A DNA stretch of 64,000 bases from the NCBI RefSeq assembly GCF_003334305.1, contig NZ_QOWS01000019.1; one strand, 5' to 3'. Shown here in pieces: positions 48,001 to 54,000 of this stretch (position 1 is the stretch's first letter; every line of letters begins with the position of its first letter). A program made the position numbers. This stretch comes from Escherichia coli. Its GTDB lineage: Bacteria > Pseudomonadota > Gammaproteobacteria > Enterobacterales > Enterobacteriaceae.

Positions 48001-51000
48001 ACAAAACAGACAATAATCAGGGCAGCAGTAATCAGAGTCAGAACAGGAGGAAAAAGAGAATAATCAAAGGGAAGGTGATGTGATTTCTGACAGGTCATAA
48101 ACAGAGAAGGCGGGGGAAAAGAACGGGCGCCGCAGGCGCACGTTCATCCCCGTTCCCGGAGGGAAACGGCCTTCCTGGCAGTCTGGTTGTTCATGCCCGC
48201 ACAATGCCAGCAAGGAGAAAGGGGCCACCGGCGAACCAGCAGCCCCTTTATAAAGGCGCTTCAGTGCAGTCAGACCAGCATCAGCCCTGAAAAGGCGGGC
48301 CTGCGCCCGCCTCCAGGTTGCTACTTACCGCTGGATTCGTAAGCCAAACTTGCCGTAACCTCCCTGTATCCGTCCTTCAGCCGGACTTCGCACAGACGAT
48401 TCCGGGTCAGGAGTGTGAATATTAACAACGTGCAGCACACGATTAATACGCACCAGATAAGGGCGTTTCCCGGTAGTTTCATGGTTTACTCCTCCTTGCA
48501 TTAAGCACGGTAAGAGGCCATACTGTTGTTGATCAGACATACAGGGGGCCTCGTGGGTTAATGAAAAATTAACTACGGGGCTTTCTGCCTTCTGCCACAC
48601 AACACGGTAACAAACCACCTTCACGTCATGAGGCAGAAAGCCTCAAGCGCCGGGCACATCATAGCTCATATCCCTGCACGCTGACCACACTCACTTTCCC
48701 TGAAAATAATCTGGTCGTTCAACCAGTTCACGGGTAATCCGTGTGATTATTGCCGCATCACGCTGCCTCCCGGAGTTTGTTCGGCACCATCCACCGCTCC
48801 ATCTCACGGACAGCATGACCGGCCTCTCTGGCTGCCAGACTGGCTTCCGCGATAACCTGCCAGAATGGCATATCCTGCCACTGCCAGCGTTCCATTCCGG
48901 CCAGTGACGGAAAACGCTCGCCCCACTGCCAGAACAGGGGTTCCAGGTCATGCTCTGCCACCCGGTCACTCCAGCGTGCATGCCAGCTTCCGACTGTTTC
49001 CGGTGAATGAAATGCCAGTTCGATTTCAGCCTGAGCAACCAGCACCTGGTACGCACGGGCTTTCTGCTCTGCCTCCCTCGCTTGCTGGCGGCTGTACTTC
49101 TGCATGACCAGCGCGGATTTATGGCGACTGCGTTCCCTGACACGAAACCGCACCGACGGGAACAAGCGTTCTGCTGCATCGCCGGGAAGGGGAAGGAGGC
49201 AGACCTCGCCCTGTGTTTCAATCAGCACATCGATGGCACACAGCCACTGAAGACGGTTGCCGTGCAGTTCTTCTGCGGTCAGGGACGGCATGAAAAATCG
49301 CAGGTCAGACAGCGAAATCCGGCGGCTTCCGTTCAGACAGCGGAAAAATGCTCCCGCATACGGATATTCCGCCAGCGTGTTTCCCTGATGGCGGCGTTTT
49401 TCCGTCTCCGCCACCGCCCGCCATGCGGCCTGTTGCTCTGTGCTGAGGGGAACCAGTGCCCGTGAACGTGCGTTCATACCTGACCTCCTTCCGCCATCAG
49501 GATATGGATGATGTCGTTAACGCTGTACCCCTGCGCATCCAGTGACGCCGCCAGTGCCAGTGAATGGCTGACTGCTTCCGGTGCAAACCGCCGCTGTACC
49601 TGAACCACCGCAAACGGCTCACCACCGGCATTCACCAGAACCAGCACCCAGACCTGGGAGACATCACCCGGTGAACATAACGCCAGGTGAAAACGTTCGT
49701 GGGCAGGCGTGAAACGGACCTGGACGGGGAAAAAGCCGCCGAACTCGCTGCCGTACTCGCCATTCATCGTCCAGTTGTCCGGCGCATCCAGTTCCCGCAT
49801 CACGGCGTGTGTCAGCTCACGGCGTTCATCACTTCCGGCAGCCCTGATATCTTCATATTCCTGTGCGTTCATGGTCTGTAATACATTCAGGGTCAGTTCA
49901 GTTTTCATCACGGTATCTCCCTTGCTGCTGCCCCGTCTCCGGCGGGGCGGTGTGGTTGTTCATCAGGCGGCATCAGCCAGGTTATCGGTGCGTTCAGTGG
50001 TATCCGTCTGTGGATGTGGTGCACACATCCAGCCAGGCACCCAGCGGTTGTCTTTCATATGGTGCTCTGCATGTTCAGCCGCATCACCTTTCTTCATCTT
50101 CTCTGCATCCCGTGCGGCACCGGACAGTCCGGCATCATTCAGAGCTGCGATAATCTGCGGCTTTTTCAGGTGTCCGAAGAAGTTTGCTTTTGTCGGCTGC
50201 CACCAGTCACGCATGTGAAAACCGATGGCGCTCTCCAGCGTGTCCAGCGGGCTGCGTGACGTGTGACCACACTCGCGGGTCTGAACGCCGTGGATGCTGC
50301 ACGCGGTGCAGAAACTGAGCAGGGATAACAGCACCTCCTGACTGAGTGACAGGAACGTCGTCATGTCCCGTGACCATCCCTCCGGTAACAGGGCCGCAAG
50401 ACGGGCTTTTTCTGCCATCATCGCCATGAACGCGGCACCTTCCTTCCCTGACGGCGCATCGCTGGTCAGCGAATAATGTTTACATTCCAGGCTGATTTGT
50501 GCTGGTTTACTGTACGCTCCGCTGCCAAACACATTCAGGCAGAGCGTCCATGCCAGCAGTGCCAGGGATTTGTCCGGTTGCTGCATGAGTGCCGCCTGGA
50601 CTGCCAGCGTGCGTTCGGAAGACATTTTCGTCAGCAGTGGCAGACTGATTTCCTCCACTGATGCTTTCTCCTGCACCTGTTCCGTGCGGTCAGCGTCGTC
50701 AGCCGCGTCATCCTCGCTGCGCAACTGCACACCACGCTGGACACACACATTACCGTAACGCCAGGACACCACCACACCGCTTCCGGTACGCATCTCCGGC
50801 GTCCACGCTCTGACCTTCGCCATGCAGCGCATCAGCTTCATTTCTGCTTCCAGCAGGTCGGATTCCTCACACTGGTTTTCCAGCGCGTCGTAACGCGTCA
50901 TCAGTTCGTTCAGGCGTTCTTCTTCCGCCTCCGTCAGCACCGCGTCCGGCTCCGGCAGACAGCGGTATGTTCCGGCATCCTCACGGCACTCACCGACAGG

Positions 51001-54000
51001 CTCCATGCGTCCGGCGCACCATTCCCAGCCTTCGGCTTCCCGAAGGTGTTCAGCGACAGCCTGGAGTTTTTCCAGCAGGGCAGCATCGAGCGCCACGCGG
51101 TCGACATAACCGTCCCCGTCATCGCTGAACAAATCAGTACGCAGTTCGTCAGGTGAGAAAGCATCAGCCCCCACGAAGCGGAATTTACTGTTCCCCGCCA
51201 CCGCCACTTCACTTTCCGTAATCAGATTGCGGATAACCCGCACATCCGGTTTTCCGCCCCATCCCGACTGACAGGCGGCTTCAAACACCTGTACCTGACG
51301 CGCGGTGTCGTTCTCCAGCGCCAGCGCCTGACAGTGTTCGGTAGTGATGCGGTCTTCTGCCAGCGCATCGAGGATGACAGGCGCAAGGTCAGCCAGTTTC
51401 AGCATTCGCTGGACATAGCGGGGTGAATAGCCCAGCAAATCACCGATTTGTGCAGGTGTTTTGCCTTCCTGCGCCATTGCGCGGAATCCGGCAATCTGTT
51501 CAGCAGGGTGCATATCCCGACGATGACCGTTTTCAGTCATTGATGCCGCCGTCGCCAGCTCCTGCGGAATGACCTTCACACGGACAGGCCAGTCAGCCGG
51601 AATGATGCCACGCTCTGCCAGCATGTTGAGTGCAGCCAGTCGGCGACCACCTGCGGCGACACCGTAACGGTCACCAGGCAGGGTATGCACGACCAGATTC
51701 TGCAACAGGCCAACGCCCTTAATGGACTCCGCCAGTTCGCTGACAGACTCCGCAGAATACGGCACCGTGCGCACATTCAGTGGTGATTTAATCAGTGAGG
51801 CCAGCGGCACGCTCACTTCCGCCGTCTGCGCCAGCAGGGCAGACAGGGCAGTCTCCTGCTCTTTTGACGGTTTACGGCTGGATTTACGCTCCGTTTTTGT
51901 CTTAGACTCTGTAACCGACATATATTTCTCCTTTGACCGGGATGGTTGTATGTCTGCCGGACGCATTCCCGTCCGGCACCTCTCTTACTTAAGAATGCCG
52001 AAATCACGGATGGCATGGTTCATCCAGTACCCGGCACCGTCCTCAAAATTCCAGGTACGCCAGACCATTGCACCGTTATTACGGACAACCAGGCGAAACT
52101 GTTCGCCGTGGTCATCCTCGATAAAGACGTTCCGGTACTGTGCGGCAACAGCTTCGGCATGTTTGCGGGTAAAAGGACCGTCAGGCAGCCCCTGAAGTAT
52201 TCTGAAATATTCGCTCATCCTCATCTCTCCGGTGATGCCCCGCACAGGACGGAGCGGTTGTCACAGTCAGTCGTTCAGAACGGGTATCATCTGAAAACCC
52301 GTAATCGTCACTCTCCGGCGGTTGCGGCTGCGACTCCGGCTGCGTGGCCTTACGTCCACGGCCTTTCGTTTTTGCGCCTCCTTTTTTCGTACCGGCCTCC
52401 GCCTGTGGTTCCGGCTGAGACTGACCGCTGAACTGTTGCCCCTCTTCCGGCTGAGTCTGAGCACCTGCGACACGTCCCAGCATCTGCATGGTGCCCGTGG
52501 TCTTAACAAGAATTTCGGTGACGTAACGGGTGATACCGTTATCCTCCCAGCTACGGGTGCGAAGCTGACCTTCGATGTAGACCTGCGCGCCCTTGCGCAG
52601 ATATTCACCTGCCACTTCCGCGAGCTTGCCGAACAGCACCACACGATGCCATTCTGTCTGCTCCCGCATCTCCCCCGTCTGTTTGTCACGCCAGCTTTCT
52701 GATGTGGCCACCTGCAGGTTTGCCACTGCGCCCCCGTTGGGGATGTAACGGACTTCCGGATCTTTTCCCAGGCGTCCTACGAGAATGACCTTGTTAATGC
52801 CACGAACTGCCATGATGTGTCTCCTTCTGTTGATGTTTTCAGCCCCATCATCTTTTGAGTTTCGGGAGCCGCGGTTTTGACGTTTTGCGGGGACCTGCCT
52901 TTTGTTCCCTCCGGTATTCACCATCACCTTTTTGAAAACCTTCGCCGCAAGGGGCATCACTGCCACGGCAGGAAACGACTGTCCGGGGGCAGACCGCAAA
53001 AGTTTTTGCCTGCTTTTGGGCAAAAAGTTTTGCGGGATGTGCATTTCACCCCTGGACTGGCGGAGACGGTTGTGGCTGTCTTTGCCCCCGGCGACAGGGG
53101 CTTAAACAGGTGAATGGCACCGGACATAACAACGGGCAGGGACCCGCCGCAACGACGTGAAGCGCGGTTTGCGAAACGGCGTTGCGCCTTACATCCCGGC
53201 GGCCTTTTGCCGGGATGCCAGGAGCGCAGGCCACGGCGCGACAGAGGCGCGCGACCGGAACAGTCGCTGCAAGCCAGGGGTTTTGCGTCAGGGATGGAAG
53301 CCCGCCAGGGCGGAGACAGCTCCGCTGGCTCCGTTCACGACAGCCCGCCCCGCCAGGGGGACGCCCGGAAAAGGCACAGGCAGAAGAAGAACAAGACAGA
53401 CAGTAATCAGAGCAGCAGAAAAAAGAAAAACAGTAGCAGTAGCAGGAACATCATCAGTAACAGACAAATGACAGATCTGAAAAGACAGAAGCCCACAGCA
53501 GAATTTCCGCGTAATGAAAGGGGCGGCGCGTGAGCGCGGCCCCTTTCAGCGCCACCGGCGCGCGGTCTTTTCCCGGCGCGGGCAGACGAGCATTTATCCT
53601 CCCGCCTGCCCGGAGTCTTCAGGCACGCAGACGAATAATCATCGTCGGGACATCGGTATAAGCAAATGTGCCGCGCGGCAGCTCCTCGCGGACGTCAGAA
53701 AACGGTAACAGCTTCTCCTGCTGGCGTGGCCCGTTGAGACAGACGGCGACCAGCACGCCACCCGGACGCAACAGGGAAAAGGCCCGCAGGATATGCCGGA
53801 TATCCTGCCCGTGGCTGAACGGCGGATTCATGATAACCCGGCTGTAATACTGCACCGGCTGCCATTCCATGAAGTCGCCACACTGAACCCTGACACCGTT
53901 AAAATTTTCCCGCAGATACCGGACCAGCCCGCTGTTGATTTCCACCGCATCACACATGGCTACCGGCGCGGTATCCCTAATCGCCCGCAGTATGGCCCCG

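Follow-up and report, generated by a model that had tools for sequence, protein, structure and literature searches.

What a ParB-like protein does in the leading region of a plasmid that has SopAB as its partition system is the question raised by a 64,000-nt stretch of Escherichia coli DNA (contig NZ_QOWS01000019.1 of assembly GCF_003334305.1), hereafter called the window, by which the whole stretch is meant. Its 46–56 kb part is the leading region of an F-like plasmid (IncFIB, MOBF), read on the minus strand, where an earlier note, made from the sequence alone, had described two open reading frames (ORFs), of 652 and 77 amino acids (aa), inside the ssb-psiB-psiA cluster. Both ORFs, and the flanking genes as recognised by NCBIfam models, were confirmed:

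49963–51921, minus strand: herB (also yfjB, yubM or 'parB2'), 652-aa ParB-like protein binding cytidine triphosphate (CTP) and DNA; ATG at 51921 after AAAGGAGAAATAT, a good ribosome-binding site
51985–52218, minus strand: yfjA (yubL), 77 aa, DUF905/UPF0401; GGAGAG ahead of the ATG, a plausible ribosome-binding site

The two genes are real and conserved, and are not chance ORFs. The 3.5 kb around them is 100% identical to pMS7163A and to many other E. coli and Salmonella plasmids (IncFIB), and the pMS7163A annotation names their products 'ParB/RepB/Spo0J family partition protein' and 'DUF905 family protein', respectively.

The larger gene answers most of the question. Its product is identical to YfjB of plasmid F (RefSeq WP_000117173, UniRef name YubM) at 613 of 652 positions (94%) in a gap-free alignment, and YfjB has been characterised and renamed HerB in a preprint of 7 July 2026 (Virolle et al., PMC13370423). 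The residues mutated in that work (R94, E130, R168, R172 and K175) are all present here under the same numbering, so that the large protein of the window is one that has already been characterised; what the window adds is a near-identical copy from a ColV/IncFIB-type plasmid. As a whole, the reading of this gene as the orthologue of F yfjB/herB, with the host-reprogramming function reported for F, is given a probability of roughly 85%.

According to the preprint, F HerB is a homodimer, for which a crystal structure of domains D1–D2 with CTPgammaS-Mg and a cryo-electron microscopy structure were obtained, the latter revealing a new dimerisation core, D4, and a V-shaped, clamp-like dimer (PMC13370423). 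The protein is present only in fresh transconjugants, where it forms nucleoid-associated foci that require R94, E130, the helix-turn-helix (HTH) residues R168, R172 and K175, and D4; localisation in recipients, which the earlier note had proposed to follow, is therefore on record for F (PMC13370423). Chromatin immunoprecipitation followed by sequencing (ChIP-seq) gave 156 chromosomal regions, with no parS-like motif and zero enrichment on F itself, while the host transcriptome in the presence of HerB showed 505 repressed and 361 induced genes (PMC13370423). Deletion of herB from F left transfer frequency and F positioning unchanged, raised the acquisition cost by about 10% and made the plasmid lose in serial conjugation-competition (PMC13370423). 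As for pED208, its 'ParB2' is translocated by the type IV secretion system, and its deletion altered neither transfer nor mating-induced SOS (Al Mamun et al. 2021, PMC8406263). Of the two deletion effects that the earlier note had in mind, the one on SOS was thus not seen in pED208 and the one on establishment appears in F as the acquisition cost. Homologues of HerB occur on many conjugative and mobilizable plasmids (PMC13370423). The view that the role of the protein during establishment is open is consequently out of date, this preprint having largely answered it.

Domain architecture and CTP switch of HerB

In the 652-aa protein, Pfam recognises ParB_N (PF02195) at residues 43–131 and HTH_ParB (PF17762, 4.5e-8) at residues 136–222, and no domain in residues 225–652. 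The ParB/sulfiredoxin (Srx)-type N-terminal domain described earlier is therefore present, with its Srx-like fold, but the canonical ParB HTH domain that follows had been left unmentioned. The nearest solved relatives of residues 15–217 are Thermus thermophilus Spo0J (1vz0, E 2.5e-18), Helicobacter pylori ParB, Noc (1e-10) and, weakly, KorB; the NCBIfam models for PRTRC-ParB, Noc and RepB gave only partial N-terminal matches, all far under their cut-offs. An AlphaFold2 model (predicted local distance difference test score, pLDDT, 90.7), built on 83 diverged homologues, shows in order a disordered N-terminus, the ParB N-domain, the HTH, an alpha/beta domain reaching to about residue 412, a linker of low confidence (412–419) and a helical C-terminal domain. 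The break in pLDDT at 412–419 agrees with the published boundary between D3 and D4, and the four domains fall as follows:

51514–51852, minus strand: HerB D1 (residues 24–136), ParB N-terminal CTP-binding domain; Box I S46-P-L-N49-V-R51, Box II G91-G92-R93-R94, Box III E130-N131
51217–51513, minus strand: HerB D2 (residues 137–235), ParB-type HTH DNA-binding domain; R168, R172, K175
50671–51210, minus strand: HerB D3 (residues 238–417), strongly acidic alpha/beta domain of no recognised family
49966–50670, minus strand: HerB D4 (residues 418–652), helical dimerisation and nucleoid-association domain, parted from D3 by the linker 412–419

The earlier description of a long acidic C-terminal region holds in part: residues 226–652 have a calculated isoelectric point of 4.8, but the acidity is confined to D3 (238–417; net charge −21, family median −19), D4 (418–636) being about neutral. 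Since this acidity is conserved, it suggests a function for D3. Compared with F HerB, 39 substitutions were counted; one of them is H169Y, within the HTH, and several others fall in D3.

A database search with D3–D4 alone (226–652; E ≤ 1e-3) returned 2,179 cluster representatives, of which the best 150 are mostly 600–700 aa long with a match starting near residue 200–250; this indicates that the HerB architecture as a whole is a conserved family. In an alignment of 83 representatives, 27–55% identical to the window protein, G91, R94 and N131 are invariant, E130 is kept in 82 sequences and R51 is nearly invariant; in D4, W627, P629 and K610 are kept across the family. A full-length match to PHROG 7783 (1e-255, residues 37–644) was also found; the phage collection itself yielded a single metagenomic record (27% identity), so that HerB is essentially a plasmid family despite this match.

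Concerning the nucleotide, all CTP-binding residues are kept, but the Gln/Glu signature of an active ParB-type CTP hydrolase is absent. The equivalence of positions was read off the alignments with Spo0J, H. pylori ParB and Noc and from Jalal et al. (2021, PMC8367383). At the canonical Gln (Q58 in Caulobacter) HerB has N49, an Asn in 81 of the 83 representatives; at the Glu of the GERR box (E102 in Caulobacter) it has G92, a Gly in 56 representatives and a Glu in only 10, while Spo0J, H. pylori ParB and Noc all have Glu at this Box II position. Caulobacter ParB with Q58A or E102A binds CTP and does not hydrolyse it, the E102A protein staying locked on DNA, and PadC, which has neither the Gln nor the Glu, showed no noticeable CTPase activity (PMC8367383). 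Because N49 and G92 replace the very pair implicated in hydrolysis, slow or absent CTP hydrolysis is predicted for the HerB family. Probably, then, HerB acts as a CTP switch that hydrolyses slowly or not at all, and its activity would end through dilution or turnover; the text of the HerB preprint makes no mention of a CTPase assay (PMC13370423).

A bolder version, which we regard as possible though on balance doubtful, is that the HerB family represents natural 'clamp-locked' ParBs, keeping all CTP-binding residues, lacking recycling by hydrolysis, and timed by transient Frpo-driven synthesis and dilution. If true, this would help to explain foci lasting for hours and broad ChIP regions without parS. 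More weakly still, it may be added that loading or release could be controlled by D3, with its strong and conserved acidity, or by the DUF905 protein transcribed along with HerB.

YfjA and its linkage to herB

The 77-aa protein belongs to DUF905 (PF06006, 2e-32) and shares the fold of YkfF (UPF0401/DUF905; PDB 2hjj), a member of the same family. It differs from F YfjA at one position only (76 of 77 identical), and yfjA is present in 3,368 of 5,426 complete E. coli genomes, nearly always on plasmids. No functional data on DUF905, nor any family member with a known function, were found in the searchable literature; the HerB preprint does not mention YfjA (PMC13370423), and no informative structural neighbour of the DUF905 fold was found.

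The association with herB was examined in 11 diverged herB loci (HerB 30–55% identical), nine of which have enough upstream sequence; L007 and L008, whose upstream flank is cut off, were left out of the DUF905 count. Five of the nine informative loci (L002, L004, L011, L013 and L016) have a DUF905 gene directly upstream of herB or separated from it by one gene; in these, HerB is 37–55% and the DUF905 protein 54–64% identical. In the other four (L003, L005/6, L014 and L015), no DUF905 gene was found within the sequenced upstream flank. In L011, a 78-kb E. coli plasmid, the DUF905 gene (4926–5215) is annotated as a frameshifted pseudogene while ssb, herB, psiB and psiA are intact, a hint that DUF905 can be done without. 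As a neighbour of herB, DUF905 is thus common but not indispensable.

Two further genes were observed in these loci. In L002, a plasmid contig from a metagenome, the DUF905 gene and herB are separated by a homologue of Ral, the anti-restriction protein of phage lambda (PF11058; 861–1061). In L015, a gene for a DNA polymerase III theta subunit (HolE-like, PF06440; 7331–7591) is found 3' of psiA and adjoins ArdA, within a herB-bearing leading region.

Among the alternatives to the main reading, the one that survives best, though we hold it to be unlikely, is that YfjA is a functional partner of HerB, for instance an 'unidentified loading partner' or a modulator of the clamp cycle. The proximity of DUF905 to herB, in F-like plasmids as in five of the nine diverged loci, speaks for it, as do the co-expression of YfjA and HerB from Frpo2 (PMC9849209) and the fact that the preprint leaves the loading partner of HerB open (PMC13370423). 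The four loci without DUF905 and the frameshift in L011 stand against it, and so does the absence of any informative structural neighbour. A partnership is also at odds with the existence of DUF905 paralogues such as YkfF. This protein and its paralogues YpjJ and YeeT presumably lie in chromosomal CP4-type islands of E. coli, and not beside herB. Moreover, HerB expressed ectopically in F-free cells, and hence without YfjA, forms the same foci as in transconjugants (PMC13370423), which means that YfjA is not required for HerB focus formation. YfjA is most likely a separate, early-expressed small factor of the leading region, co-expressed with HerB and not an obligate subunit of it.

Other explanations for HerB and objections to its reading

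Three other explanations were weighed for the large protein. A nuclease of the ParB/Srx fold, or another anti-defence enzyme attacking or protecting DNA on entry, is very improbable. The 'nuclease domain' of the earlier note is a historic Pfam label, and it does not withstand the complete set of conserved CTP-binding motifs and the crystallisation of the F orthologue with CTPgammaS-Mg (PMC13370423). No nuclease activity has been reported, the R94 mutation abolishes foci as expected of a CTP switch, and the PADLOC matches, far below significance, cover the generic ParB_N core only.

A tie of HerB to PsiB and SOS suppression has slightly less in its favour again. It would fit the position of psiB directly 3' of herB in nine of the 11 diverged loci and the co-transcription of both genes from Frpo2 (PMC9849209), but pED208 without parB2 shows SOS no higher than the wild type, which sets it apart from the psiB and ssb deletions (PMC8406263), and HerB homologues without psiB exist (L005/L006 and L008).

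The least credible explanation is a conventional centromere-binding ParB for a second, unrecognised plasmid centromere. Apart from the RefSeq label 'ParB/RepB/Spo0J family partition protein', it can draw on a score above the cut-off of the TIGR00180 parB_part domain (62.7 vs. 58.45 bits) and on chromosomal Spo0J being the closest solved relative. The only ParA/ParB pair of the window, however, is sopAB, about 10 kb from herB:

61502–62473, minus strand: sopB, NCBIfam equivalog, SopB-type ParB (9.5e-192)
62473–63648, minus strand: sopA, NCBIfam equivalog, SopA (4.5e-263)

No parA stands beside herB, its neighbours being yfjA and psiB, and the LG(R/K)GL motif for ParA interaction is found neither in the window protein nor in any of the 83 family members, Spo0J GLGRGLEAL being aligned to KEQETALSAL in HerB. 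The chromosomal parS (TGTTNCACGTGNAACA, up to 3 mismatches) has four matches in the window, each with 3 mismatches, against 3.2 expected, and a scan of 47–58 kb for short palindromes gave just two, both weak and neither near the operon, and no candidate HerB site. In its C-terminal half, HerB does not resemble the C-terminal domains of ParBs and does not contain their small domain for dimerisation and non-specific DNA binding. With the unchanged positioning of F after herB deletion, the absence of ChIP enrichment on F (PMC13370423) and the absence of the F protein from vegetative donor cells (PMC9849209), the second centromere is largely refuted, and the earlier statement that this is not the centromere protein of the plasmid stands.

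The reading of the gene as a herB orthologue with the F function meets several objections of its own, which all weigh against it. The functional data on HerB come from a single preprint, not yet peer-reviewed, on the F orthologue, and much of them from an ectopically expressed fusion to the green fluorescent protein; the window protein differs from that of F at 6% of its residues, including H169Y inside the HTH. On the side of the CTP switch, the hydrolysis argument is one of sequence analogy and Asn might partly stand in for Gln, while E130A (equivalent to E135 in Caulobacter) also abolishes foci.

Expression of the operon, known systems and proposed course of events

The genes around herB and yfjA and the repeat that precedes them are:

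52831–53456, plus strand as template (transferred) strand: Frpo2-type single-strand promoter repeat, upstream of ssb, with 89–95% identity to both Frpo regions of F
52181–52813, minus strand: ssb, plasmid protein that binds single-stranded DNA (SSB), NCBIfam PRK13732 (7e-112)
49474–49911, minus strand: psiB, SOS inhibitor, directly 3' of herB, NCBIfam NF010255 (6.7e-84)
48758–49477, minus strand: psiA, with a 4-nt overlap with the psiB stop, NCBIfam NF010258 (1.8e-125)

The order Frpo2 > ssb > yfjA > herB > psiB > psiA is that of F, and traM and oriT are located beyond the neighbouring leading genes. The Frpo-type repeat, of about 600 nt, has three copies in the window (47440–48066, 52831–53456 and 56090–56713), of which the middle one is directly upstream of ssb. 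On the plus strand, which is the template for the ssb-psiA genes and would accordingly be the transferred strand, a long imperfect hairpin is predicted at 52900–53300 (−103.6 kcal/mol, z = −5.7). Inside ssb-psiA, the minus strand yielded no sigma-70-like promoter, and a terminator-like hairpin follows psiA on its 3' side; together with the Frpo fold, this fits a single operon driven by Frpo2, as in F. There, transconjugants make YfjA and YfjB in synchrony, early and for a short time, when the plasmid is still single-stranded; this production requires Frpo2, and the proteins are undetectable in donors (Couturier et al. 2023, PMC9849209). Early transient expression of yfjA/yfjB is also supported by RNA-seq (PMC12672017).

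Concerning the ssb gene, the window lineage carries, relative to F, a 1-nt deletion within 52275–52291, aligned as GATATCCCG -> GATACCCG and also written GATATCCCGTTCTGA -> GATACCCGTTCTGA. Being near the 3' end, it replaces the terminal IPF by 35 additional aa, an extension reaching 38 nt into yfjA and overlapping its start. The IPF tip of the E. coli SSB tail mediates partner binding. In pCFSAN027385, the annotation gives the frameshifted allele as an SSB of 210 aa; the PLSDB gene table of pMS7163A does not contain it.

Further observations concern the surroundings of the operon. The 51-nt spacer between herB and psiB contains a GC-rich hairpin (49926–49952; 12-bp stem with 8 G-C pairs) which lacks a U-run on the mRNA strand and might thus serve in attenuation or in mRNA stability. 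E. coli MS7163 has two plasmids (pMS7163A and pMS7163B; L001 and L012), each with its own ssb-DUF905-herB-psiB-psiA cluster, the pMS7163B copy being 91% (HerB) and 81% (YfjA) identical to the window proteins. Against three Frpo-type copies in the window, the compared 54–67 kb stretch of F has two. The third copy precedes an operon at 53619–55591 (minus strand) of a small hypothetical gene, a DUF3560 gene and a class I S-adenosylmethionine-dependent methyltransferase gene, and it may be the cause of the early expression of this operon, for which the literature is still seeking the promoter (PMC12672017). Opposite the immediate upstream region of the DUF3560 gene, at 55868–55969 (plus strand), the Rfam family AS-pc01 (antisense RNA to pHK01_035) was matched with 105 bits, for a gathering score of 79; within the coordinates of herB and yfjA, no Rfam family was found.

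Among known systems, F HerB and the pED208 'ParB2' come closest. The likeness comprises the 94% identity over 652 residues, the four-domain architecture, the CTP-binding and HTH residues, and, for F, the position between yfjA and psiB downstream of a Frpo repeat; the 39 substitutions and the loss of the IPF tail from ssb set the window lineage apart from F. The type Ia ParBs Spo0J and Noc are closest to residues 15–217, with the Box I–III layout and the HTH in common, but HerB lacks the LG(R/K)GL motif, a parA partner and parS, has N49/G92 for Gln/Glu, and carries 430 extra C-terminal residues instead of the small ParB C-terminal domain. KorB of the IncP plasmid RK2 binds defined operators on its own plasmid and also partitions with IncC, whereas HerB acts on the host chromosome, with no ChIP enrichment on F and no known site, and its D3–D4 half is unrelated. 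VirB (Shigella pINV) and BisD (ICEclc) are CTP-dependent, ParB-like transcription regulators as well, yet each of them, expressed vegetatively and starting from specific loading sites, controls genes of the element that carries it, while HerB is present only just after transfer and affects host genes. PadC of Myxococcus xanthus, finally, is a bactofilin adaptor recruiting ParA, without HTH-based DNA binding, with otherwise unrelated domains and not on a mobile element.

The course of events proposed for the window plasmid would start with its entry as single-stranded DNA, when the Frpo hairpin on the transferred (+) strand would serve as promoter and give early, transient expression of the operon; this step has been shown for F, and is inferred here from the 89–95% repeat identity and the predicted fold. 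HerB would then dimerise via D4, with two flexible legs each carrying D1 (CTP), D2 (HTH) and the acidic D3, as shown for F and as supported here by the 94% identity and by a confident model with the same domain boundaries. Bound to CTP, it would form nucleoid foci on the host chromosome, and not on the plasmid, without a parS-like site, and would shift the expression of hundreds of host genes, thereby lowering the transient cost of acquisition; chromosome binding, transcription remodelling and the lower cost have been shown for the F orthologue only (PMC13370423). Clamp loading and sliding, as a fourth step, would follow the model of the authors of that preprint.

With HerB, the plasmid genes expressed first would not only block host defences but also retune the physiology of the host. 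By lowering the acquisition cost, HerB would favour the spread of resistance plasmids, a point already made by others for the F orthologue.

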